A stretch of DNA of 63,843 nucleotides, counting the filler, from Fonticula-like sp. SCN 57-25 (taxonomy: Eukaryota), in NCBI GenBank assembly GCA_001724245.1. It is 5 parts of 5 records of this genome, joined end to end, with 100 filler letters (N's around TTAATTAATTAA, not from the genome) between each part and the next. Parts side by side here need not be neighbours in the genome. Positions count along the whole stretch, not along the records: positions 38,846 to 51,472 come from MEDX01000186.1; 4 more parts are not named here. The stretch is one strand, 5' to 3'. Made by a program: the position numbers and the translations under genes. The notes beneath the pieces are model-generated. The model saw only the letters and a program-made list of their open reading frames with translations. It was not told where the DNA came from and searched no databases. Shown here one piece after another: positions 14,150 to 51,472 of this stretch (position 1 is the stretch's first letter; each line of letters starts with the position of its first letter).

Positions 14150-15784
14150 TCACATGGCGGTCATTCGTGCATGACAATTGTAAAATACAAACCACGGATC
14201 AGCCAGCAACGCTTCCGCAGTCAAGCGTGTAACGTCGGCGAACCTGTCCGAAAACCGACGACCTAGCTCCGAACCAAGCCATCGCGGGTCAAAGTCGAGC
14301 ATGCGCCCCACAAGAAACAAGTCATGAGACGGATAGCACACATCATTGGCGGGATAATACCGCTGCTTCAACTCATACGAAAATCCTTTCGTCCCAGCCT
14401 TCCATACACACTCACAATCAATGAGGTAGAAACGAGGAGGATTATACACAACATTTCCCCAATGAACATCACTGTGCACCCACCCTTTTTCATGCACACC
14501 CGCCAGCGAAGTCAGCACACAATATATGGCAAGCGCAAGAGTACCCTCATCGCGAACTTGTGGCAGCGCCTCTGCACCAAGGGGACTGAGATAGAGATGG
14601 AAATGGTGCGATGTTATCTCGTATCGGCAAAGAGTCTCGAGATTGGGCACGTCCTTGCAGTCCTTGTAAAATGACTTTAAACGGTCGACCATATCAAAAT
14701 CCAAAGGAAACATCTTTCTTGCACCATCAAAAGTCAACATGACAGACTTGCCGGCAATGCGTTCAATGGTACAGTTAAGGGTATACTTTAGTCGCATCAT
14801 ATTCAACGAATGAACATTGGCCAATACCCAGCGATACCAGCGACCAATATTGATAAAGACAGGAACGAGCGATAGCAGCGCCAGCCCATCACGCGCGTCG
14901 ACATTCAAGGGCTCTGATTGGCTCGGTGCTGAAAAGCGATGGCGTGTCCAGAAGCGCCACTTGCCGCGCGTGATGGCAATGCAGATGACAAAGGGCAACA
15001 TTCCATAGAAGGGCACGTTAATAAAGGCGTCACGCTCAATCTGCTCATAGGCGATATCAATAAGGCTATCATCAGCCTTTTCCTCTATAATGATAAATGG
15101 TGGATATGTGCTCGAAGAGACTGTGACGCCAATCTTGTCATCGGGAAGTGTGGCACTAGAATACTGATTACGTGTCACGTTCACATCGCCAACCAAAGAG
15201 TGTAAAAGCTGCATAAACAAGTCGGTGCGGCCGACAAGATCAAGTTTTCCGCTTCCTGAAACAACGTATTTTACGAGAACTGCAATTATTTCCCAGCCCG
15301 TGTTGACACGGCCATCTTGACTTTCCTGGAAGCCGAGCCAATTGAAATGCGCCCTGACAACGTCGTTTTCATAAATAGTGGCCGGGAAAAGGAAAGGCTC
15401 AAACGGCGCGCTGAACGCAAAAGCTTCACTGGAAAGTAACGAGCCAGCATAAGGAACTGTGCTGAAAGCAGCCGGCACACGAGCAGGCGCCGCGACCGCG
15501 TCAATCTTGACCGTCAGCTCAGCGCCTTCGATAGCGCGCTCGCGATAGTTGACCTCGAAGCCATTCAGCAAAAGCTGCGGCAGACAAAGCGGCGCAAACG
15601 TCAGCCAACAGTGAAAAGTGCGCGCGGGCCGTACGTGGATGTTTTCGGGAGCAGGTTTGGGGTCAGGGCGACGTACGCGAATTTCATTGCGGACGTCTCG
15701 CCACAGCGAGCCCGGAACATACGGCATTCCATCATCGCTATTGGGCACGCCTTCAATTGACCACGACACCTGGGGAACGGCCAT
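14150..15784 (-). CDS. Crinkler-like effector: ubiquitin-like header + PD-(D/E)xK-like domain + protein kinase
   Basis: Kinase motifs WVHSDVHWGNVV, YLIDCE, DLFLVG. Middle domain LPDDKIG..IIIEEK..AYEQI. Ubl-like WRDVRNEIR..PENIH|LLLNG. One in-frame intron near 15575-15634. Visibly lower GC than neighbours. Confidence 0.72.
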   Translation of the reverse strand: MAVPQVSWSIEGVPNSDDGMPYVPGSLWRDVRNEIRVRRPDPKPAPENIHVRPARTFHCWLTFAPLCLPQLLLNGFEVNYRERAIEGAELTVKIDAVAAPARVPAAFSTVPYAGSLLSSEAFAFSAPFEPFLFPATIYENDVVRAHFNWLGFQESQDGRVNTGWEIIAVLVKYVVSGSGKLDLVGRTDLFMQLLHSLVGDVNVTRNQYSSATLPDDKIGVTVSSSTYPPFIIIEEKADDSLIDIAYEQIERDAFINVPFYGMLPFVICIAITRGKWRFWTRHRFSAPSQSEPLNVDARDGLALLSLVPVFINIGRWYRWVLANVHSLNMMRLKYTLNCTIERIAGKSVMLTFDGARKMFPLDFDMVDRLKSFYKDCKDVPNLETLCRYEITSHHFHLYLSPLGAEALPQVRDEGTLALAIYCVLTSLAGVHEKGWVHSDVHWGNVVYNPPRFYLIDCECVWKAGTKGFSYELKQRYYPANDVCYPSHDLFLVGRMLDFDPRWLGSELGRRFSDRFADVTRLTAEALLADPWFVFYNCHARMTAM

Positions 15785-16117
15785 GGTCGACGTGTCAACG
15801 GATGTGGTGAACGTGAAGCCGCATGATGCTGGATTGGTTCCTGAACTGCGCTTTGCTGACACCAGGGTCAGGGCCGGACTCTGCCCCAAACTGGCCTATC
15901 ATCAACCGCCGCTATTCCGTGTTTGACATTGTCCTATTGGCTCCATTGCATTGCTTTGGGCAAGCATGACTAGGCATAGATAAGGACGCGACCGATCGGC
16001 TCCATTCGAATATATTGTGACAATTGTTCAGGAAAGAGTACAGAGAAAAACATAGAACAGTAAACAAAACTTGAGTGGGGCCAGGGTTGGAAACTCTTAA
16101 CACACAAAAAAAAAGAT

Positions 16118-28561: not shown

Positions 28562-28838
28562 TGTGATTGCAATAGAATGTGGGTTTCAAAGAGCAGTGTT
28601 GCATGCCCTTGCCAAGCGTCACTCATTCTAATCTCTTGTAGAAAATATCGCATCACATTATATGCAATACTTGCAATGAACAAGGGCACGAAACACAGGG
28701 TAATAACAATAAAAGAGAATGCAAGATGAACAACATATATTTAAGCTTGCTCAATCGTCCATACACCATTGCTACCGTCATCCACTTAAGGACAAATTGC
28801 GCCTCTGTGCCTGAGCCGTTGATTAATTCGTGTCTTGG

Positions 28839-31800
28839 TTAAGCGTGGTTGCTTCTCGTCGAACTGGACCTACCCTCTCCAGACGACGATGCTCCAGAAT
28901 CCGCTAAGAACGGCTGCACCGGAGAAGAGAAGTATACAGGAGGTTGAGTCTGCGACGCCCACGGACTCACAGCGGGGGCAGCCAGGCCGTTATCTGTTGC
29001 CCACGGTGACGCAACGGGACCTGCGAGCAGCGCCGACGAGCTGGAGCATTCGTCAGTTCCCTTTCGCGATGCCGTCCTCTTTTTCTCGTATGCCAATGGT
29101 TTTTCATTGACACGCTTTTCCCCACCAAGCCTTCCGCCGAGGCCATGTTTACCGGCCACGCTGCTGCTTGCCTGATCGTGCGCAATGGAAAAATATGCGG
29201 GAGGCAGATCCTGCTCTTCCTGCGCCGGTTCACCAGGCACATCAGATGGGCCCCAGAAAGCGTGCGGTGCCAGAGCCGCAGAGGACTGCGACGAGGCGCC
29301 CAGCAGGCCACCAGCATCGCCGCCATCGTTTTCAGATTCAGGGTCGTCGCTTCCGTCGTCCGGCGTGTGCTATTTCCACGACCAATGGTAAGAAAGAGGC
29401 CAGAAAGAGGAGGACGGGGCGCACCAATGCCATCGTGCTCTCTACGTAATCCACCTTGGAGATGTCGGCCACGCGGTTGCGGCGTCGAATATACAGCTTA
29501 AGACCCACTAGCATGAGAATAAGGAAAATTACGCCCAACACAACGCCGACGATTAAGCCTATCGGTGGTACATCTTCCCTAACGCCGCCGTCTAGCAAAC
29601 AATAATAATATGAGCGCTCAAATAGCATGACCGGTATTCACGGTTTTTTCCCAAGCATACCGCCATCACCGACATAATCGGCGGAGGATGTGCTGGCCGT
29701 CAGGCGCACACCCACTTGCTCCGTCTCGCCGTCGCGACCCGCAAGAAGAAGCAGTTCGTACGCCTTTGAAGTTTCAAGACCGGTGACCGTCGCATCGGTC
29801 GACGCTACGCTGGTGTTAACAAAAGACAAAAAACCTCGCAGTTGCGCACCACTTCCGAGCTGGCTGAACAAAGTAAAGCCATCCGACACTGCGCGGGTCG
29901 CCGCGAGCTTGCGGTACCACAGCTCGTAGTACGCACCCTCGGGTGACGCTGTCCAGCTGACGCGCAGCGAGTTGTGCGTCCCAGCCTCTAGTTGAAAGGA
30001 ACTAGCCGCTAGATATGTACAAATCAGCACAACAACGTATACATATTATCGAGAAACGCCGCACGCGGTATGTACGTCTTGGTCTGCAAAACGACGGCGC
30101 CAATGTCCGAATAGCCGTTGTCACTGATGGACACACGGAACTGATACCCGGAATTCGAAATGAGGCCGCCAACAACGACATGCCGTTCAGGAATATTTGA
30201 AGCGGCTATAGATACTGATAAGTTCACTAGGACATATCTATCCATGAAAGCGCGTACCGCCGGAATTGGCTACGACAAACGACCCCGTCAGCGTCGCCAC
30301 TTCAACAAGGAACCTTGTGCTCTCTGTCGCATTTGCCGTGTCCCATGCAAGCGAAACTGAATCTGACGTCTTGCTCGTCCAACGAAAGTTCTCCAGTTGG
30401 CCGCCGACAACGGGAGCTAGAGGGAGCGCGTTAATGAAAGCACCAACCGCGGGAGCAACGTACTAAAGATACAGGGCCGAGCATAGGTGTCCTCCCATGT
30501 GCCGTTCGAATAACAGTAGCGCATTGGGGGGCCTTCAGGTGCAAACTCGTAGCCAGTGGCGCAAATTCCCTCGACACTGGCGCCGGGTGAAGCTGGTGGA
30601 AAGAATGTCATGCCGACAGTGCTGCTTTGGCAGTCATCGTACTTGACCGTACACGGATCGCTAATGACGGTGCTCCAGTTACCGGAGGTGAGACACTGCC
30701 TGCGAGGCGTTCCCTGGTACCCGGAGATGCACAGGCCAACAGTCTCGGCTCCAACTGTCGTGGCAAACCAATCAGCGTTTCCTTTCCGTTCGGCAGAGCA
30801 AAGCCGCGAAGCACACGGATTCGAGATTGCGCCCCAATTTCCGTCGTTTTGACATTGCCGCGATGGCGAACCAAAGTAACCTGTCTCGCATTCGCCATAA
30901 ACGGGCGCCGACAGCGACAGCGTGTTGGGCCACTCTACGTGGCCGTCCATCACGGCCGGACAGACGTTCTGCAAGCACGGGTTCACAATGGGACCCCACA
31001 CCCCAGAGGACGAGCACGCGCGCGCCGGGCTCCCGGAATAGCCGGTCGGGCATGAGCCGCTCGCAGCGCTGTCGGCCGACGTAGCAGGCCAAATGACGTG
31101 TCCATATGACTGGGCAGGACACGACAGCGGGATGCAATTATCGCTGAGGATCGAAGTCCACGTGCCATTAAGGGCGCAATCGCGAACGGGCAACCCGATG
31201 GTGCCCAAGGGGCAGATGCCTCCTACGCTCGTCGTGCCTGCGTTGGTCGGCCCCCATGCGCCCGCTTCACTGTCGAGCGCCGGGCACATAATGCGAAGGC
31301 ACGGGTTCCTCACGGCAGAGTACAAACCACTCGCGCTGCAGTCTCGCAGCGGTGCTCCATACCAGCCCAACGTGCAAGTTCCACGCACGTCATTGGTCAT
31401 AGAGTTTTCCGGCGGCCAAAGGGCGTTTTCAAATGTTTCACTAGGGCAAACAAGACGCTTACAAGTGCCGCTGATCGAGCCCCAGATACCATTCTCAAGA
31501 CACGAGCGGCTGGGTGCTGGGCTGGACGCATAGCCAATAACGCAGTCACCATAGGCAACATTCCCGGCAAGAGTATCGATCCATTGAGCATTGCTCATTG
31601 TCTCGGCGGGGCAAATGACAAAATTACACTTGCCAACAACTGGGCCCCACACACCATCCAAAGAGCAGGAGCGAGTTACCGAGCCCACCGTGCCAGGTAC
31701 GCATGTACCAGTGGATGAAAGACCACTAGGCGTATCCACCCACATACTATCAGAACTCATACCAGACGGGCACTTCAGTTGGGTGCAGGGAGCTGAGACT

Positions 31801-34800
31801 GTCTCCCAGATGCCAGAGGAACTGCATAGGCGCGTTGGGGCACCCCCGTAACCCGCAAGGCAGGCGCCTGAAGCACTATGGCCGGCCTGCGTCTGCGGCC
31901 ACGAGCTGTGCGCGCCGTCATCGCCGATGGCAGCGCAGCGGATCGCCTGGCAGGCAGGCGACGGCGTGCCCCAATCACCCGCAAGCGTGCACACGCGCGC
32001 GGTCGTCCCGGAGAAACCGGCGAGGCAGGTTCCCGAAGCCGACGAACCGGCCTGCACAGACTCGGGCCATTCGGCGTTGAACGGGGAATAGCTGGGCGAC
32101 GTCTTTGTGCAGTAGATCGGCTTGCATGGGTTCGTGATCACCGTGTCCCACTGGCCGTTGTCCTTGCACATGCGCTGCGGCGGCGGCAGCGTCGTATCGT
32201 AGCCGGCCACGCACGTGCCGGTCACAACCTGGTTGACGGTTGAAGGGCTCTCCCAATCAGCGTGGCCGTTGTTGCGCAGGGCCGGGCACGGGTTGGTGCT
32301 GCACGGGTTCCTCGCCTCCGACCACGTCCCGTCGTAGAAGCAGTCGCGCGCAGGGAAGCCAAACGTGTTGTCGTAGCAGGTGCCGTCCACGTTCGAGTCG
32401 CCGGCGTTGGTTTCAGGGAAACGTGCTTGCGCTGAAGCGTCGTTGATGGCAGCGCACTTGATGCGCGTGCAAGGCGACACGATTGAGCCCCACGTCCCCG
32501 AGATGCTGCACTCACGCATCGGCGAGCCGGTCCAGCCGAGGTTACAAACTCCATAAGCGGTCGTGCCGGAAATGGTATCCGACCACTGGGCGCTGCCCTG
32601 ATTGTGGGCACTGCACACGATGGGCCGGCAGGGGTTAATGATTTCACCAAAGATGCCGTCGGGGCCGCAGGTGCGGCTTGGGCTTCCTTGGTAGCCAGTG
32701 AAACATGTCGCAGAAACGGACGTGAGCGAATCCGTAGAAGGCCAGCTGGCAAAGCCCTCGGTCGTTGAGCTACAGCTGTAGCGAGTACACGCGCCAGAAA
32801 CAGCTAGCCACTCGCCGCTCACGCTGCAGTCGCGAGTAGGCGTACCGCTGTAGCCGGCTATGCATTCGCCCGAAACGGTGGAGGTGGGAGCAGCCGAGTG
32901 AGGCCAGATAGCGTCGTTTCGCTGCGCCCACGGGCAGTACAGCCGGACGCAGGGGTTTGCGATAGACGGCGACCACGTGCCATCGGCGCTGCAGGCGCGA
33001 GAAGGGACACCCGAGTAACCAGTAACGCATGTGCCGGTTGCGGTTGTCATTGACAGAGTGTTGCCAGGCCAATTCGCGTTCTCAAAAGTGGTCGCCCAGC
33101 AGGTGTTGCGAACGCACGCGGGCGATACAGACGAAGCCCAAACGCCAGTGATTGAGCACATGCGCACAGGCGCCCCGCTGTACCCAGTCACGCAGGTGCC
33201 ATTGCTGCTCGATCCCGCGTTCGTTGCTGGCCACGCAGCATTTTTAAATGACGATTCGGCGGAGCAGGAAATCGGATGGCAGGTGCCAATGACGGTGGTG
33301 TTCCAGCTTCCGTTTGCCTCGCATGGCCGCTGCGGCGAGCCTTGAAAGCCTGCAACGCACAAACCCACGCCATTTGTCATCGTGATCGTTTTAGGCCACT
33401 GTACGTTGTTTACGGCATCCGCAAACGGCTGGCACTCAATACCTACGGCAAAAGTGAGTAATCTACCATTACCAATCAGTGGGTGGCGAACGGGTACAAG
33501 GCCTTGTGACATTGCCCCATGCACCAGACGCAGAGCAGGTGCTCGCTGGGGTGCCGGAGCTCGTCGCGTACCCAGGGAGACAGGCGCCGGTCCGCGTTAC
33601 GGTGCTGTAGGTTTTGATAAATTCGGCGTTACCCATCGTCACAGCAGGACAGACGAGGCGACTACAAGACTCGATGGCGGTATCGGCCCAAGTACCATAG
33701 GGGGAGCAAAATCTGGTTGCAGTGCCATTGTAACCGGTGATACAAGAACCAACTGCAACTTGGCCGGCGTTTGTGATTGGGTATCCGGCATTCCCAACGC
33801 TACCCGTGATGTCCTCACTGCACGTCAATGCTAACAGGCAGGTCAGTAGACGCAGGGGGCCTAGCAATATACGAACGAATGCAAGGGTCGCGCACGGCTC
33901 CCCATACGGTATTGCTACAGAGCGCTTTCGGATATCCAATGTAGCCTGGGAGGCAGGTGCCCGTTGAAGTGACGCCTGTCAATGTTAAGGTGAAATTGGC
34001 ATTCCCAATGATCGTCGTGTCACACGAACTATCTGAAAAACGGGAAATGTTAGATTAAGAATTATAAAAAGAAAATTGGCGTACAAGTACACTGTGTTCC
34101 TGATCCGGCATAGTGCGTGTTGCAGGTACATTCGCCATTGTAGGAGCAGCCTGCATTCTGGTCACACGTCAAATAGTCGAGGGCAATGTAGGCTCTGAAA
34201 GGAGCAGACCCCTTGTGCGTTTCCCAGCCTATTTGTGTACCATGATCGTACTGCTGGCGGAGCGTCACCTAAGGGCGCCGGGTAAATGGATGGTCGAAAA
34301 TATCGTACAAGATAGGATGCGTACAGTGCTGGCTGAATTGCGCACTACAGTATTGAGGAGGGTGGCGGGGAGGTCAACATAATACCACCACCTAAAGAGG
34401 CGATTAGCAGATATCTCAAAGTGGCGCTAAAACCGCACTCTGATGCCTTTGTGTAGCCCGATTGCGATACGCGGGCGATGTAGGATGAAAGAGCAGGTTG
34501 GTTATTCCAGGTCAAAGCGCCGTAGTTGCTAAACAGCGCGTTAACATTGCTGGTACATTACTATTCTCGTACACGTTGGTAAGCGCATCTGTTGTAACTG
34601 TGGTAGCCATGCTGGGGGTCGCGCTTGTGCTTGACTGGCTCAGGAACAGCTTTGGCGCTCCGGTGGCGCAGAAACGGCTCGAGATGGGCTTTCGAAAGAA
34701 GAGGTGTGAGTCAGTGATAACCAAAGAATACGACTGCGGCATACTGCCAGAGTAGAAAAGTCAAAGACGCCGTATGACACCCAGCGCGGCATCGACCCAG

Positions 34801-35088
34801 TTCCTTGTGTGTACACCAGGTTGTACGTTTTATACTCGTCCGTGCAACCTGGCTCCCCATTGCAAAATTTGATCTGGTAACGAGCGCCAGCCTCATAATT
34901 GCGCCCACCATTCCCAGAGTAGGTAGAAGCGCCATTGTACATGTACACCCGCGTGTTCTGTGAAGCTACACACGCGATATCAGCTGTTAGCAAATCTCTT
35001 GGCTGCAAGATTGGTAGTGAGCGCAGTGCGCACCTGCGGTCGCGATGCTGAAAGCCAACAGCGCGATTCGCGCTAGAAAAGCTCGCAT
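28839..35088 (-). CDS. Large type-I membrane protein: signal peptide, N-terminal domain, EGF-like, about 21 HRM/sushi-like 4-Cys repeats, FN3 domains, TM, PPxY tail
   Basis: Signal MRAFLARIALLAFSIATA. EGF-like CDQNAGCSYNGECTCNTHYAGSGTQC. Repeats C..NA.WP.T..G.C..GY.G.P.R.C...G.W...C. FN3 (LRVSW..YELWY..TVTGLETSKAYEL). TM IGLIVGVVLGVIFLILMLVGL followed by RRR. Confidence 0.85.
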
Positions 35089-35248
35089 TTTCGGCTCCCC
35101 TAATTGCGCTCAGCCTTCCAGCCAGGTAGCCAACTCACTCTGGTAAGACTAGCGCGCGAGCTGCGAGCGAAGACCTAGGGATTCAGGCCGAGACTTGCTG
35201 CAAAGTCGCTGGCTACGGTTTGCAGAAAGTTTGCAACTTCGCAAGTGT

Positions 35249-35263
35249 TCAGTTTGCACTTTG
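35249..35263 (-). promoter_or_regulatory. Candidate cis-element CAAAGTGCAAACTGA upstream of repeat receptor
   Basis: Identical 15-mer upstream of viperin (63790-63804) and a 14-mer upstream of the BAH-PHD gene (51616-51629). Confidence 0.45.
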
Positions 35264-35699
35264 CAACGTCTACGTCATCGTCATGATGTCATCCCTGCTG
35301 TGTCGCCGACGCGCCGTGACGTAGACGTGACGTTTCGGAGATGAGGTCGCCGACTCGCCGTGGGGTCGGAGCTGATCCCGCTCATCAACTTTGTGCAGCC
35401 CGCTATTGCGTCCCTTGATCACTACCTACTGCGCCAGTGTTGCCGTCTGCAGCCAAAGCACCCGCTGCACCCGCAAATCGTCCGATCTCGAGAATAGTAT
35501 TGGACTATTGGTCAGGATTCTTTTGTCCCGCCAATTCCGCCATCCACGACCGCGTCGCCCCGCTTCGCCTTTGCGTCATGAGCATGAGCCAGCGCGACAC
35601 GCAGCAGGGCAAGGGTACCATTAACTTGCTGCTGGCCGAGAACTAGCTTTTCAGGGGCCGCGAGGCCTACCGGGGCATTCGCGGTCCGCCGGGCCCGGT

Positions 35700-36202
35700 T
35701 AGAGGTCCGAACCGGTTCCAATTTTTGGAACCGGAACCGGCCGGTTCCAGACGCTCAAAACCGGAACCGGAACCGGAACCGGAAGTCATATGCGACTACG
35801 CCCTTTTTACCCCTGATTTTAGGAAGGTCCCTTGACGATGGGCATCATGGAGTCGTTGGCCATCTGGCATCAGATGATGAGCTGTGTCCATTGAATGCCA
35901 ATACGACAGATCATTGGATAAACGCCAACGCTCTAAAGGAAGTATACCTTTGCTCGTGATTGACTGTGTTAGATGATGGAGAACTATTATGGGCAGCGCT
36001 GCCTCCTGCCTCCGCTTGCCGCGCCATTTCAAATTTGGCGGGAAATTTGGCGGGAAACGAGGCGTGTCATATTGAGTCATAATAAAAAGTCAGGGCTGGA
36101 ATCAGTGTCCGGTTCCTGCCGGTTCCGGTTCCAGAAATTTGGAACCGGAACCGGTTCGAACCGTCCGGTTCCGGTTCGAACCGGACCCGGGTCGGACCTC
36201 TA
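35700..36202. mobile_element. Non-autonomous hAT-type DNA transposon (MITE), 503 bp
   Basis: TIRs TAGAGGTCCGAACCGG / CCGGGTCGGACCTCTA. Exact 8-bp TSD GGCCCGGT at 35692-35699 and 36203-36210. Subterminal (GGAACC)n arrays at both ends. Confidence 0.92.
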
Positions 36203-36247
36203 GGCCCGGTGTGGCACGCAGGACGCCCAATACGCTGCTATTACTGG

Positions 36248-36479
36248 TTTGAGGTGTTCCGTTGCGCTCTCTCGCCCACATTCTTACCTCGTCCACCAAT
36301 CGCTGAGCGAAATGCGCAAGCGGAGCGTTTGACAGTACCGCGGGAATGTAGGCGTTGCAGCGATGCTGGTAATTCTCGCCGCAGGGATCTCGCTCGATCT
36401 GGACCAGTACAACAAGCTCATATAGCTCAGGAGCTGACGCCCGCCGTCGACGCCGAGATCGCGTCCTTGTCGTGTGATT
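36248..36479 (+). pseudogene. Degenerate copy of the 3' half of PC4/SUB1
   Basis: Aligns to 28265-28568. Acceptor ccaatAG changed to ccaatCG, internal deletion, insertion containing TAG in the last exon, stop TAG changed to TCG. Confidence 0.88.
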
Positions 36480-36701
36480 TTGAGCAATAGGACGTGGTTA
36501 TCGAAGCGCTTGTTTGATTATGTTTTCATGTGTTAATGCCATCCAAGTATATTATAATCATGCATGAATTCCAAAATCGCATTGAATACGGTCTACACGC
36601 GGCACAAATGCCGCGCATGCTCATAGTTACGAATGCCTCGTCTACTTGTGATCATATTATGTCTCCGTGTTATAGTTGTCCAGTATAATTCAACTGACCG
36701 T

Positions 36702-38745
36702 CTAGCTTCTCGAGGCGGTCTCTCCCGATGAGGACGCTTGACCCGCCGGGAGCTGCTGCGCCGCAGACATGTATAGAGGAGGCTGCGCCTGCGACGCCCA
36801 CGGGTCCACGGCGGGTGCAGCCATAAGCGCCGCCGCACTAGAGCACTCGTCTGTTCCACTGCGCGAATCCTCCACCAGTCCCTTTTCATCGACACGCTTG
36901 TCCACGCCGCGGCCTTCCTTGCCGGCATCACTGCCGCCTGCCTGACCGTGAGCAATGGAAAAGTATGCGGGGGGCAGGTCCTGCTCGTCCTGGGCCTGTC
37001 CGCCTGGCATATCGGATGGGCCCCACGCGTAGGGGGAGACATTGGGCGCCGAAGCAGCCGGAGACTTTTTCGAAGCGCCCATAGAGCCACCCGAATTGCT
37101 GTCGTCGTCTCCCGATTCGGGTCCGTCGCTTCCGTCGTCCAACGTTTGCTTTTTCCGCAACACAACGGGTAAGAAAGGGGAAATCATAGAGGAGAAAGCA
37201 GCGCACCAGTGCAATCGCGCTCTCCCTGTATCCCGCCTTAGATACGCCATCCATGCGGTTGCGGCGGCGCAGACACATATATAGCGCGACGATAATTATG
37301 ATGACGAGGAAGAAAACGCCCACAACGATGCCGATAATCAAACCAATCGGCGGTACTTCTTCCTCGCTACCGCCGTCGTCTAGCAAACAATGTGAGCGCC
37401 CAAATTATGTGAGCGATATTCAAGCCGTACCGCCTTCACCATCATCCTCACCGCCTTCATCCTCGTTGTCATCGTCCTCTGCCGAGGCTGTGCGCGCCGT
37501 CAGGCGCACACCCACCTGCTCCGTCTCGCCATCGCGGCCCGCAAGAAGGAGCAGTTCGTACGCCTTTGAAGTTTCAAGTCCGGTTACCGTCGCATCGGTC
37601 AACGCTACGCTGGTGTTAACAAAAGATAAAACCTCGCCGTGCGTACCACTTCCGAGCTGGCTGAACAGAGTAAAGCCATCCGACACTGAGCGGGTCGCCA
37701 CAAGCTTGCGGTACCAGAGCTCGTAGTACGCGCCCTGGGGCGACGCCGCCCAGCTGACGCGCAGCGAATTGTGCGTCCCTTCCTCTAGTTGGAACGAAGC
37801 CGCCGCTGAAAACACAAAAAATGAGCACAAAAGAAAATCATGAAATGCCGTACGGGGAATGTAGGTCTTGGTTTCCAGCAGAAGGGCGGCCGAGTCCGAG
37901 TAGCCGTTGTCACTGATTGACACACGGAACTGATACGCGGTATTGGAATCGAGGCCGACAACAATCACATGCTGCTCAGTGATATTCGAGGCGGCTAAAC
38001 ATGCCGTGAGACACGCCAATAAAGCACAGTTAGCGCGCACCGCCAGAGTTGGCTACAACAAACAACCCCGACACTGTCGCCGCCACTTCTACGAGGAACT
38101 TTGTGCCCTCCGTGGCATTTGCCGTGTCCCATGCGAGCGAAACCGACTCTGACGTCTTGCTTGTCCAACGAAAGTTTTCCAGCACACCACCGACAACAGG
38201 GACTACACAAAGCACGTTAAAAACAGCAAATAAAACAAGAGAGCAGCGCCGCACTAAAGGTACAAGGCCGAGAGTAGGTGGCCTCCCACGTGCCGTTCGT
38301 GTGGCAGTGGCGGATCGGCGGGCCCTCGGGGGCAGCCTCGTAGCCAGTGGCACAGATTCCTTCGACGCTGTCACCGGGTGACGCGGGCGGGAAGAATGTC
38401 GTGCCGACAGTGCTGCTTTGGCAGATACTGTACCTAATCGTGCATGGATCGCGAATGACGGGACTCCAGGCACCCGAGGCGAGACACTGACGACGAGGCG
38501 TTCCGTGGTAGCCGTCCAAGCACAGGCCAATAGTCTCGGCTCCAGCTGTCGTGGCAGTCCATTGAGCGTTTCCCGTATATTCCGCGGGGCAAAGCCGCGG
38601 AGCACAGGGATTCGCGATACCACCCCAGTTGCCATCGTTGGCGCAAGGCCGTGATGGCGAACCAAAGTAGCCTGACCCGCACTGGCCTGTGGCGGTCGAC
38701 ATCGCCGGCGTCGCGGGCCATTGCACATGGCCGTCTACCACGGCC
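36702..38745 (-). CDS. Paralog of the HRM-repeat/FN3 receptor, 3' part (5' end lost in gap)
   Basis: Colinear with 28839-30955: last three repeats, FN3 domains, TM, LPPAYFSI tail. Similar intron positions and open frames. Confidence 0.85.
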
Positions 38746-48377: not shown

Positions 48378-50199
48378 TCACACATCCGCATCATCATCCT
48401 CATGCGGAAAATTCTCTGCAAACTCTCTCAACTCTTTCGCCGTCCCCACCGACCTATTGCCAATACATTAGCATTAGCCACACTATAAACCCCTTTTTCT
48501 GTCTCGTACTGAGCCGGTATCTGCGGAAATGTCTGCCTGGCCAACCCACTCAGCACCCCCCCCGGCCCCATCTCTACAAACCTCCCCGCCTTATGCAGCT
48601 GCACCATCCTACTCCCCACCATCACCCACCCCACCGTCCCCGCCGTCTGCCTCGCCACACCCTCCCTAACCCCCCTCGTCCCGCCCATCACTTCGCCAGT
48701 GAGCCCAGAAAGCACCGCCAGCGACGGCGGCCGAACATGTATCTTTGCCATCACTGCTTCCAGCTCGGCCACGACGGGGGCCATGAGGGCGCTGTGAAAG
48801 GGCGCGCTGACGCGGAGGGGAATTGCGCGGGAAATGAGGCGGAGGGAGCGCGCTGATTGGATGGTGGCGGTGACGGCGGGAGTGGTGCCGGAGAGGGTGA
48901 GCTGGGTGGGGGTGTTGATGTTGGCGAGGGAGCAGGTGTGGGGGGGGCCGAGAGAGGTGGAGATGCGATGGCTGAGTTGGCCTGAATGGGGGTTAGGAAG
49001 GGGGGGGGTAAGAGAAGGGGAAGAGAAAGTGGATGTATATGGATGTATATGGGAAAAATACATGAGTATATGAGATACATACATGGAGATACATACAAGA
49101 GTACACATGAGTACATGGGAAATAGATATGAGAATGTACATGAGAAAGATAAAGATAGGTGGATATGAACAGAAAGTGTGGATAAAATTACATATACACA
49201 CATAATCAATAGACATGTACATGCACAATATAGTATAACTATACCCATGTACGACCATGACATAAAATGACCCTCATCACCTATATCTTTATGCCATATC
49301 CCTATTCCTATTTCATTCCCATTCCTGCCCATATTCCTCTACGTACGAAGCTCCTCGACCGACTCTACCCAATTGGACCCCGCCGGCAGAAACACCGCGG
49401 CCATTGATGTCGGCACTCCGACCGCATCCGCCGCACGCTGCATCGCCAGGCCCCGTTTGCGCTAAGTGACATTAGGATCACTATTCACTTGGATCCAATG
49501 ACTGCGCACGACAAGATAAACAGCGTCCGAGAATCGCAGCGATTGCGCGCAGACGAGCGCGGAAAACTCGCCGAGCGAGTGGCCGGCCGACACGCACGTG
49601 TACTTGGAGAGGTCGACGCCGAGATCGAGCTTAAGGGAGCGGTAGAGGGCGACAGAGTGGAGGAGGATGGCGGGCTGGCAGTTTTCGGTTTTGGTCAGTT
49701 CTTCCTGGAGATGGGGTCAGTACAGGGGAAAGCGAAGGAATATAAACAAATATAGAGTCAATAGTCACGTTAATAACGACAAGTGTACAGTATTGTATTC
49801 ACACGCACATACATTGAATATACATACTATACTGATCACACGTTCAATAGATTCCCAGTGATGACCACGGCCATGGACAAGTTACCTCGCACTTTCATGT
49901 CAAACATCAACATAAAAGCAAACATAAGGTGCTCTAACACACTAACATGCGCCACACTCACTTCCAATGCCTCACATGCCGCGTACCATGGGACCCTCCT
50001 CCATCATCTTTGAGAGGTTGATGCCGAGGATCTCGTCGACCTCCTTTGCCATGTTGCGCGCCGTAGGAAACTCGCGGAACAGGTCCTTTGCCATGCCAAC
50101 ATACTGAGAGCCCTGGCCTGGGAACACGAGCGCGATCGAGTCATTCGCGATGCCCTTGGACGCCGACGCGACCGCCGCCGCCGCCAAGCGACTCGTCAT
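48378..50199 (-). CDS. MCAT: Malonyl-CoA:ACP transacylase (FabD), mitochondrial
   Basis: VFPGQGSQYVGM, LTKTENCQPAIL, GHSLGEFSAL, ANINTPTQLTLSG, LRVSAPFHSALM, VEMGPGGVL. Confidence 0.92.
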
Positions 50200-50435
50200 C
50201 GTCACGTGACTTTTGAGTTACGATGACACACCGTTTGTCACGTGATGGTCGCCACGCGGCCTTTTTCCGCCATTTTTCCCTCTTTTTTTTCATTCTCTTT
50301 CTTTCCCTTTCCCGACCCTCGTGCGCCGGAAAAGGACGAAAGAAAAGAAGGATGGCGATCGCAAGCTAACTGGTACGTCCCTGTGGCCTGGCTGGGTGAA
50401 AGAAGGGGAGTGTGTGTGCTGCTGTTGGTGGGCGT

Positions 50436-50527
50436 GGGTCGCTGAAGGGATGACAACTTCGAAAATCCAACTCTAAAGCAAATCCATGTTGATACCCCGA
50501 TGAGCTTTTTTTTGTCTGATCGAACCC
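50436..50527 (+). ncRNA. Box C/D snoRNA, SNORD19-like (18S Gm683 human numbering)
   Basis: C-like GGGATGA, D CTGA at 50516, terminal stem GGGTCG/CGAACCC. Guide AAATCCAACT before D'-like CTAA is antisense to 18S AGUUGGAUUU. Extra GAGCTTTTT is antisense to the adjacent AAAAAGCUC. Confidence 0.62.
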
Positions 50528-50704
50528 ACTATCACTATCATTTCCTCTTTATTATCTAGTTATGTCTGGCCATCTTTACTAACTCGCTTGTAGTCTCCTA
50601 TTATACAAGTCAATGAACAAGACAATGATCCTTGCTTGATCTTGCCGCCAAGAATGTCTCCTTGATGGTGCGTAAAATGTGTGCCATGCGTGCTGCTTGA
50701 TGTG

Positions 50705-50790
50705 GAAAAGTGTCTATGAAGATAACCCTTTTTGTGACTGCCGATGCCCATGAGGCCGTCCATGTTTCAGCCTTGTCGGAGACTCTTTTC
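50705..50790 (+). ncRNA. Box C/D snoRNA, snR41-like (18S Gm1126 yeast numbering)
   Basis: Stem GAAAAGTGTC/GACTCTTTTC, C-like ATGAAGA, guide GTTTCAGCCTTG antisense to 18S CAAGGCUGAAAC, D-like CGGA. The fifth nucleotide upstream of D pairs with the first G of CAAGG. Confidence 0.8.
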
Positions 50791-50949
50791 TCTATCTTTT
50801 CTTTCTATCCTGCTTGATCTCGTTCGACATTGACTAACCATCCATGATGATAGATATTGAACAAGCACCTCTATACACACATATATATGAGACTATTTCT
50901 TCAATATGGTGCGTATTATTACTATATTGTGTGCTTTTGTACTTGCTTT

Positions 50950-51040
50950 GTAAGGATATGAAACCGAGACGGGCGGACTGAAAGGGGTGTTTCATTACTG
51001 GAACGCCTATTGGTGTTGAATGTCTCTTTTTATGAACTTT
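50950..51040 (+). ncRNA. Box C/D snoRNA, snR70/U43-like (18S Cm1639/Cm1703); ends approximate
   Basis: Guide GACGGGCGG (50968-50976) + A + CTGA is antisense to decoding-site CCGCCCGUC. The D+5 rule selects the C equivalent to E. coli C1402. Confidence 0.75.
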
Positions 51041-51149
51041 TTTATCGTATTTTGTTATGGCTTTGGCCCTTTTCGTATATGGAAACTAACCCGCTGTGCT
51101 CTTAGGTACGTCAATATGACTGAATATGACGATATATGGCTTTATATTT

Positions 51150-51226
51150 GAGAATGATTACAAACACTTGTCGCAATTTTTCCTATTTAATGTGAGGATT
51201 GTCAAGTTCGGTTCATCGATGAACTC
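51150..51226 (+). ncRNA. Box C/D snoRNA guiding LSU GAU[G]AACCGAAC
   Basis: C-like ATGATTA, C'-like GTGAGGA, D-like ATGA, short GAG/CTC stem. 12-nt guide GTTCGGTTCATC is antisense to LSU GAUGAACCGAAC. Confidence 0.68.
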
Positions 51227-51409
51227 TACATACTTGCTATATATTTTACATACTTGCTATATATTTTTGTTATATATTTGTGTGTTGTTGTGGTACTTAT
51301 TATCTCTTGATAGGACTCTTGAGCTGCTGATCATATACAAGACTCTACTTTGGCCCTTATTGGTACGTACTTTACTATTGAATTGAATATGAAGATATGG
51401 TCGAGATAT

Positions 51410-51472
51410 GCGCGTGATGTTTGTATGCAATGCTATGCCTGAAGACAGTCAAATAACCCTGATGTCACCTTT
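51410..51472 (+). ncRNA. Box C/D snoRNA (truncated by gap) guiding LSU CAU[A]GCAUUGC
   Basis: C-like GTGATGT, guide GCAATGCTATG + C + CTGA (D'), C'-like CTGATGT. Confidence 0.65.

Follow-up and report, generated by a model that had tools for sequence, protein, structure and literature searches.

A putative non-coding host gene for at least five intronic box C/D snoRNAs in a probably non-fungal opisthokont

Results

A locus with splice signals, divergent from an MCAT-like gene

The window, by which we mean the whole 63,843-nucleotide stretch of Fonticula-like sp. SCN 57-25 DNA analysed here, consists of several contigs joined by N linkers and comes from an assembly of 9.5 Mb in 749 contigs. 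The locus described here is the final 1.1 kb of contig C186; because this contig stops at 51472, the gene found there may continue past that position. Its head-to-head neighbour is an MCAT-like gene (malonyl-CoA:ACP transacylase), two exons of which matched Pfam Acyl_transf_1 (E 2.6e-5 and 3.2e-6, under the curated cut-off). Between the two genes are two palindromic copies of an 8-mer, TCACGTGA, of which the window has 9 copies where 0.9 would be expected and which we take to be a possible E-box or Cbf1-type promoter element. A bacterial promoter scan has no bearing on this gene. The predicted features, in window coordinates, are as follows.

48430..50199 (low end approximate), minus strand: MCAT-like gene, the divergent neighbour, with its ATG at 50199; from ORFs and Pfam
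50200..50330, no strand: putative promoter region serving both divergent genes; contains a pyrimidine tract and, twice, the TCACGTGA palindrome (50202-50209 and 50238-50245)
50330..50372 (5' end not fixed), plus strand: exon 1, lying before the first donor
50373..50593, plus strand: intron 1, 221 nt; donor GTACGT, branch site ACTAAC at 50578, TAG acceptor
50594..50667, plus strand: exon 2, 74 nt, from splice signals
50668..50853, plus strand: intron 2, 186 nt; donor GTGCGT, branch site ACTAAC at 50833, TAG acceptor
50854..50908, plus strand: exon 3, 55 nt, from splice signals
50909..51105, plus strand: intron 3, 197 nt; donor GTGCGT, branch site ACTAAC at 51085, TAG acceptor
51104..51111, plus strand: zero-length exon (predicted recursive splice site), where an acceptor AG adjoins a donor GTACGT
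51106..51313 (alternative acceptor 51341), plus strand: intron 4, 208 nt; weak branch site
51314..51362, plus strand: exon 5, 49 nt (21 nt if intron 4 ends at 51341), from splice signals
51363..51472, plus strand: intron 5, incomplete; donor present, no acceptor before the contig end

The earlier note had described five 5' splice sites here, with matching branch-point and AG acceptors and short non-coding exons. We located all five donors, GTACGT or GTGCGT (50373, 50668, 50909, 51106 and 51363), which open five introns within 50373-51472, the fifth cut by the contig end. The acceptors agree with the description for introns 1-3, which carry full splice signals and close with ACTAAC, a pyrimidine stretch and TAG at 50593, 50853 and 51105; but in intron 4 the branch site is weak and either of two acceptors could serve (probably 51313, otherwise 51341), and intron 5 has no acceptor in the window. 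Neighbouring protein genes, whose intron borders were set by reading frame (for VLCAD, by tblastn), likewise have GTRCG donors and CTRAC branch sites.

The internal exons measure 74, 55, 0 and 49 nt, so that the exons are indeed short, although one of them has no length at all. Joined, the on-contig exons have stops in most frames and a longest ATG frame of about 30 codons, and none of the six unspliced ORFs of the locus matched Pfam, so these exons do not form a conserved protein ORF. Two smaller observations concern this part of the gene. Exon 2 contains, at 50614-50639, a 7-mer resembling box C and an element of 10-11 nt that could pair with the 18S 3' end, in poor register and probably there by chance. 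In the tail of intron 4, a tandem duplication of about 19 nt (51229-51267) stretches the distance from box D to the acceptor.

A candidate C/D snoRNA in every intron

Model searches of the assembly for SSU, LSU and 5.8S rRNA, together with a guide-pattern search, found none of the organism's own rRNA. The proxies were 8 eukaryotic-rDNA contigs (from 51 loci), from which 7 SSU, 4 LSU pieces and 5 5.8S were used. Three plant-like SSUs were registered to the Arabidopsis methyl map and then to yeast and human through published equivalences; parts of PMC8053127, PMC8817022 and PMC5199042 were also used. The guide motifs of the locus were not found in the first part of the PMC8053127 supplement. As an observation on the databases themselves, a eukaryotic 18S start is present in at least 51 stretches (L004-L054) of GTDB prokaryote records, and the 8 that were checked are eukaryotic rDNA and hence contamination.

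The candidate snoRNAs and their elements are as follows.

50450..50519, plus strand: snoRNA 1, SNORD19/SNORD69-like; box C ATGACAA at 50450, guide 50464-50472, D' CTAA at 50473, C' ATGTTGA at 50486, D CTGA at 50516
50502-50510, plus strand: accessory antisense element of snoRNA 1, 9 nt, pairing with 18S just upstream of the main duplex
50705..50790, plus strand: snoRNA 2, snR41-like; box C ATGAAGA at 50716, C' candidate at 50750, guide 50764-50776, variant D CGGA at 50777
50958..51035, plus strand: snoRNA 3, snR70-like; box C ATGAAAC at 50958, guide 50968-50976, D' CTGA at 50978, hairpin, C' GTGTTGA at 51013, D ATGA at 51032
51154..51222, plus strand: snoRNA 4; box C ATGATTA at 51154, C' candidate GTGAGGA at 51192, guide 51206-51217, D ATGA at 51219
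within intron 5, plus strand: snoRNA 5; box C GTGATGT at 51414, guide 51427-51437, D' CTGA at 51439, C' candidate CTGATGT at 51459

Each intron had been said to hold C/D boxes and an antisense element. The antisense part of that description stands: a stretch of 9-13 nt beside D or D' pairs with the rRNA of other eukaryotes in all five introns. The boxes, on the other hand, are degenerate, lying 1-2 mismatches from consensus; canonical box C (RUGAUGA) occurs in none of the five, terminal CUGA only in snoRNA 1, and the C5-D2 and C6-D1 pairs are imperfect in snoRNAs 1-3. The sheared GA/AG kink-turn pair is kept in all four complete snoRNAs, including snoRNA 3 with its revised D. The proposed Rfam check failed: no covariance model, those of snR41, snR70 and SNORD19 included, reached its gathering threshold on any of the five, and the snR70 model had no match in the genome at E 10. 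Judged from their sequences, the snoRNAs would thus work like the snR41, snR70 and SNORD19 families while failing the model test of membership. Fold stability set snoRNA 3 apart (z -2.76, with 1 of 200 shuffles equally stable); the other four were no more stable than their shuffles.

The guide of snoRNA 1 pairs over 9 bp with 18S, and its D+5 base corresponds to human G683, a register that assumes no human indel between 668 and 683. Among the 7 SSU sequences this pairing reaches 9 bp in one and 8 bp in one. The accessory element was equalled by 79 of 20000 shuffles and by 5 of 1572 AT-rich 39-mers. The same guide also pairs over 8-9 bp with 25S, with D+5 at Arabidopsis G2918, equivalent to human G4464. 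A possible external stem round snoRNA 1 (50434-50441 with 50521-50529) was seen by eye and is absent from the minimum-energy fold.

SnoRNA 2 pairs over 13 bp (12 Watson-Crick and one G-U) with D+5 at yeast 18S G1126, the snR41 site; a terminal stem of 10 pairs with one U-U closes the molecule. For snoRNA 3, 9 bp form in all 7 SSUs and D+5 is yeast 18S C1639, the snR70 site. Register against published tables thus confirmed the three known sites (G683, G1126 and C1639) that had been claimed, and three of the five retained guides select D+5 positions known to be 2'-O-methylated in other species. Just ahead of the branch site of intron 2, outside snoRNA 2, 11 nt (50816-50826) are antisense to conserved 18S near the plant Am1330 site; this match lacks a usable D box and is probably due to chance. 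We downgraded a second guide in snoRNA 3 (51006-51015, 10 bp to 25S), whose D+5, A2934, is one off Arabidopsis site A2935, because by alignment with a metagenome homologue its "D box" belongs to the C' box.

The predicted target of snoRNA 4 is the 25S G in GAUG*AACCG (L025 LSU 1165), within a conserved stretch, with 11-12 bp in all three LSU sequences that cover the site. That of snoRNA 5 is the 25S A in CAUA*GCAUUGC (L029 LSU 3131), with 12 bp in one LSU sequence only. Neither target is among the yeast, Arabidopsis or Neurospora sites, nor in the portion of the Dictyostelium list compared. SnoRNA 5 is probably cut by the contig end, with its terminal D off-contig; since the contig ends inside the fifth intron, the earlier count of "at least five" snoRNAs was well chosen. 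Several candidates were set aside in these two introns. A weak Rfam Afu_264 match on snoRNA 4 (E 0.61) was treated as chance, and a snoRNA 4 guide at 51182-51190 was downgraded, as the GTGA that follows it starts the best C' box. For snoRNA 5, a box C at 51389 was rejected because it lies just 26 nt past the donor, and an assignment to yeast m1A2142 was dropped, the register estimate being near 2149-2150. We also note that 51147-51155, which overlaps box C of snoRNA 4, and 51182-51190, which precedes its C' candidate, pair (9 nt each) with adjacent 25S stretches beside the plant Um1067 site.

Chance expectation

Splice signals, boxes, spacing, complementarity and the register on known sites are all read in the sequence, and we asked how often such features arise by chance. 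When a guide plus D box was matched against any rRNA 9-mer, strict settings gave 2 matches (reached by 618 of 2000 shuffles) and relaxed settings gave 12 (523 of 2000), so these loose counts do not exceed chance. With 9-mers common to at least two organisms there were 5, a number reached by 37 of 2000 shuffles and by none of 200 other windows; two of these five matches were later judged chance. The full layout of donor, box C, guide and D was found 5 times, against a shuffle maximum of 3 (n = 2000) and a maximum of 4 in other windows (3 of 200). These last two counts lie above chance, the first of them subject to the two matches just discounted.

Spacing was also regular. In introns 2-5, box C lies at +48, +49, +48 and +51 from the donor, and a spacing of 48-51 nt is found in four of the five introns; of the 96 donor-like hexamers in the rest of the window, 5 show it (binomial 3.5e-5, calculated post hoc). 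This is close to the 41-60 nt given for Neurospora in the part of the literature covered. Distances from box D to the acceptor are 74, 73, 70 and 91 nt. Three of the seven initial predictions fell on known sites, which has a probability of 0.002-0.04 under assumed backgrounds of 4-12%, and the two-guide pattern was absent from 100 shuffles of the window.

Related loci in the genome and in metagenomes

The strongest check against chance is recovery of snoRNAs from held-out sequence. We ran the donor-spacing-box pattern over the organism's whole assembly and obtained 8 hits vs 1 in the control; three of the eight are credible snoRNAs and five look like chance. An snR60/U80 snoRNA stands at the Rfam gathering score (41 bits, E 6.9e-4; L069:1489-1573, minus strand, contig C306), in an intron of a gene that, from its translated flanks, we take to be RPL5-like. 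Another locus that appears to be a non-coding host lies on contig C14 (about 15520-15940; L064:1501-1918), in head-to-head orientation to an SDHB-like gene; it carries two C/D snoRNAs in introns, with box C 46-47 nt past each donor. Its first snoRNA has an snR51-type 25S guide, matched to Neurospora CD6 by eye, and a SNORD96-type 5.8S guide (Rfam E 0.032); its second has a U95/Neurospora CD28-type guide. By eye, this host reaches its end with no obvious ORF, and the gene that follows is convergent.

A two-guide scan of metagenomes, which allowed spacings of 142-202 nt only and which most fungal clusters could therefore escape, gave two hits. One, on a GC-rich contig (L063), has snR41 in the first intron and then snR70, in separate introns, with a common box C and C' context. 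The other (L062) is a chance match in bacterial-type coding sequence. All four hits of an snR41 guide scan of viral contigs were likewise chance.

Phylogenetic affinity of the organism

EF-1alpha from the assembly carries an insertion of about 12 residues, which marks opisthokonts. Its nearest named relatives are chytrid-grade fungi (84-85%), and in a tree of 109 rows (6 of 115 candidate rows were dropped as long or duplicated) it fell in neither the fungal nor the animal/Pigoraptor clade. VLCAD, encoded on the same contig, has as its closest named full-length proteins those of Capsaspora (70%) and Pigoraptor (69%); a tree of 37 chosen rows, built by a quick method, had no placement value, because non-opisthokonts also carry the gene. 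Chitin synthase and integrin beta were not found in the assembly, which is incomplete, and among the best six kinase loci a catalytic loop was present in three, none of the tyrosine-kinase type. The organism is an opisthokont and probably not a fungus, and we lean towards a non-fungal unicellular opisthokont, perhaps a nucleariid-like one.

Discussion

Proposed mechanism and its alternatives

We conclude that the locus is very probably a non-coding host gene that releases one C/D snoRNA per intron, a gene type already known in fungi and animals. The features noted earlier are confirmed, and the host reading is supported by splice signals like those of the neighbouring genes, fixed spacing, guides on known sites, and the absence of a protein frame or Pfam match. 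By analogy with known systems, transcription, splicing order, processing, methylation and exon decay might proceed as follows. RNA polymerase II would transcribe a non-coding gene, head to head with MCAT, whose introns are the products; after splicing and debranching, each intron would be cut back to a box C/D snoRNA some 65-80 nt long. Each snoRNA would load the methyltransferase complex and direct 2'-O-methylation of the rRNA base paired five before D or D'. SnoRNA 1 would act on 18S G683, aided by its second antisense element, and probably also on 25S G2918/G4464; snoRNA 2 on G1126; snoRNA 3 on C1639; and snoRNAs 4 and 5 probably on two 25S sites. Once joined, the exons, which come to about 250 nt on this contig, would code for nothing and would probably be degraded.

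The junction at 51105/51106 allows two readings. The intron 3 acceptor AG (51104-51105) is the sole AG between 51020 and 51110, lies 16 nt past a perfect branch site, and directly abuts the intron 4 donor. We think it likely, from this arrangement, that the junction is used recursively: removal of intron 3 would set exon 3 against the donor at 51106, after which intron 4 could be removed, so that two introns with no exon between them would leave in two steps. Alternatively, the snoRNAs are real and the junction is not recursive, in which case introns 3 and 4 would leave as a single intron holding two snoRNAs, or 51106 would open an ordinary exon carrying snoRNA 4. Splice sites often have an AG|GT context, the branch site of intron 4 itself is weak, and snoRNAs within exons occur in fungal clusters (PMC2780460 and PMC5033589, in part). 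Moreover, a branch site and YAG followed directly by a donor, as at 51085-51111, occurs twice in the 9.5 Mb assembly vs once in a reversed control, the other instance being a coding exon that happens to begin GTACGT; since this count about equals the control, the argument for recursion rests on position. There, a perfect donor follows immediately on the perfect branch site, pyrimidine tract and TAG and stands 48 nt ahead of the snoRNA 4 box C, a spacing like that of the other introns; of the six AG|donor hexamers in the window, the other five lack a branch site. Further snoRNA hosts with zero-length exons are described in the available parts of reports on D. hansenii and Candida (PMC5033589) and on Euascomycetes (PMC3596301), the latter also giving a 5'-to-3' splicing order for fungal clusters. 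A preprint, likewise covered in part, reports a recursive splice site demonstrated experimentally in S. pombe SPNCRNA.445, the snoRNA61 host (bioRxiv 10.1101/226894); as here, an acceptor lies directly beside a donor within a snoRNA host, but the snoRNAs differ, and recursion is experimental there and predicted here. On balance, a non-recursive junction seems to us unlikely, though a serious contender.

The exons might instead be the 5' untranslated leader of a protein gene beyond the contig end at 51472, with the snoRNAs in leader introns. UTR introns of Candida protein genes are known to carry snoRNAs, in the part of the literature covered, and this genome also uses the RPL5 protein gene as a host. 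As many as five introns in a leader, together with several upstream ATGs followed by stops, would be out of the ordinary, however; the contig C14 host reaches a convergent gene without an evident ORF, and fungal cluster III hosts are non-coding. We consider a leader improbable. Still less credible, and in our view very improbable, is that the locus is a decayed relic or that its motifs arose by chance in AT-rich intergenic DNA. The degenerate boxes, the lack of an Rfam match and the loose 9-mer counts within chance would fit, but chance does not readily account for the fixed spacing, the known target sites, the failure of window shuffles to yield the two-guide pattern, the aligned L063 homologue or the held-out snoRNAs.

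Comparison with known hosts

The locus had been likened to vertebrate GAS5/UHG. A spliced non-coding host is supported, but the closer comparison is with fungal polycistronic hosts, especially cluster III (snR41-snR70-snR51). Vertebrate GAS5/UHG (SNHG) genes likewise have non-coding exons and multiple intronic C/D snoRNAs, with box D about 70-90 nt ahead of the acceptor, like here; unlike them, the whole gene here is about 1.1 kb, with another snoRNA set and a zero-length exon. Cluster III shares with our locus a spliced non-coding host with one C/D snoRNA per intron, internal exons that are tiny or absent, snR70 directly after snR41, and an snR41 guide whose 13 nt before box D are letter-identical to Neurospora CD9. 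In contrast to cluster III, intron 4 carries another guide in place of snR51, an snR51-type guide being found on contig C14. The host thus works like cluster III and has part of its order, while one defining feature, snR51 next, fails. This order and the zero-length exon are new beyond the earlier note.

Further comparisons rest on partial texts. SnoRNA 1 has the same 25S target and D' position as Neurospora CD17 of cluster III (PMC2780460), but it lacks the U45-type guide and pairs over 8-9 bp with 25S rather than 12. SnoRNAs 4 and 5 have no counterpart in the portion of the Neurospora list compared, and in D. hansenii the empty exon precedes snR70, whereas here it follows. Euascomycete cluster III is described as also having U45/CD17 (at one end) and U55 introns, and CD17 appears to lie at the 5' end in Neurospora, judging from the label "intron A" in the portion covered. 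Luo et al. treat the U45/CD17 intron as a Euascomycete gain, in the text available; here, a guide for the 25S site of CD17 stands ahead of snR41, which would suggest that U45/CD17 was retained and not gained, a reading weakened by the short pairing, the label-based 5' place of CD17 and a next member other than snR51. In vertebrates, SNORD19 has a verified dual target, 18S G683 and 28S G4464 (PMC6984369, in part). As in SNORD19/SNORD69, which lie in vertebrate GNL3 introns, one antisense element of snoRNA 1 fits both sites, but here there is no Rfam match, the host is non-coding and dual use is predicted only. A literature search for this cluster, or for such hosts in non-fungal unicellular opisthokonts, found none among the sources covered, most subscription journals lying outside them.

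The find is mainly an annotation missed by Rfam and by protein gene finders, and its value is evolutionary. We raise, as a tentative and rather doubtful proposition, that the block "G4464/G683 guide - snR41 - snR70" was inherited from a host older than the split between fungi and a non-fungal opisthokont; in a survey of 44 genomes, as far as the available part goes, snoRNA positions were not stable across eukaryote supergroups (PMC3511168). If the block were ancestral, cluster III would predate fungi, the U45/CD17 intron would have been present ancestrally and lost elsewhere, the SNORD19 element with its two targets would long predate vertebrates, and exon-less recursive splicing of snoRNA hosts would have arisen outside fungi too. 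If the order of two or three guides proves conserved between ascomycetes and a deep-branching opisthokont, it would give the fungal cluster a date and allow gain to be tested against loss for one of its introns. The locus also offers a compact case of a predicted zero-length exon together with two predicted rRNA methyl sites.

Other features of the window

Elsewhere in the window, 30417-38734 encodes large repeat proteins rich in cysteine, in which FN3-like segments and a transmembrane stretch occur, and a partly duplicated copy of these is found at about 28800-30050 and 36600-38050.
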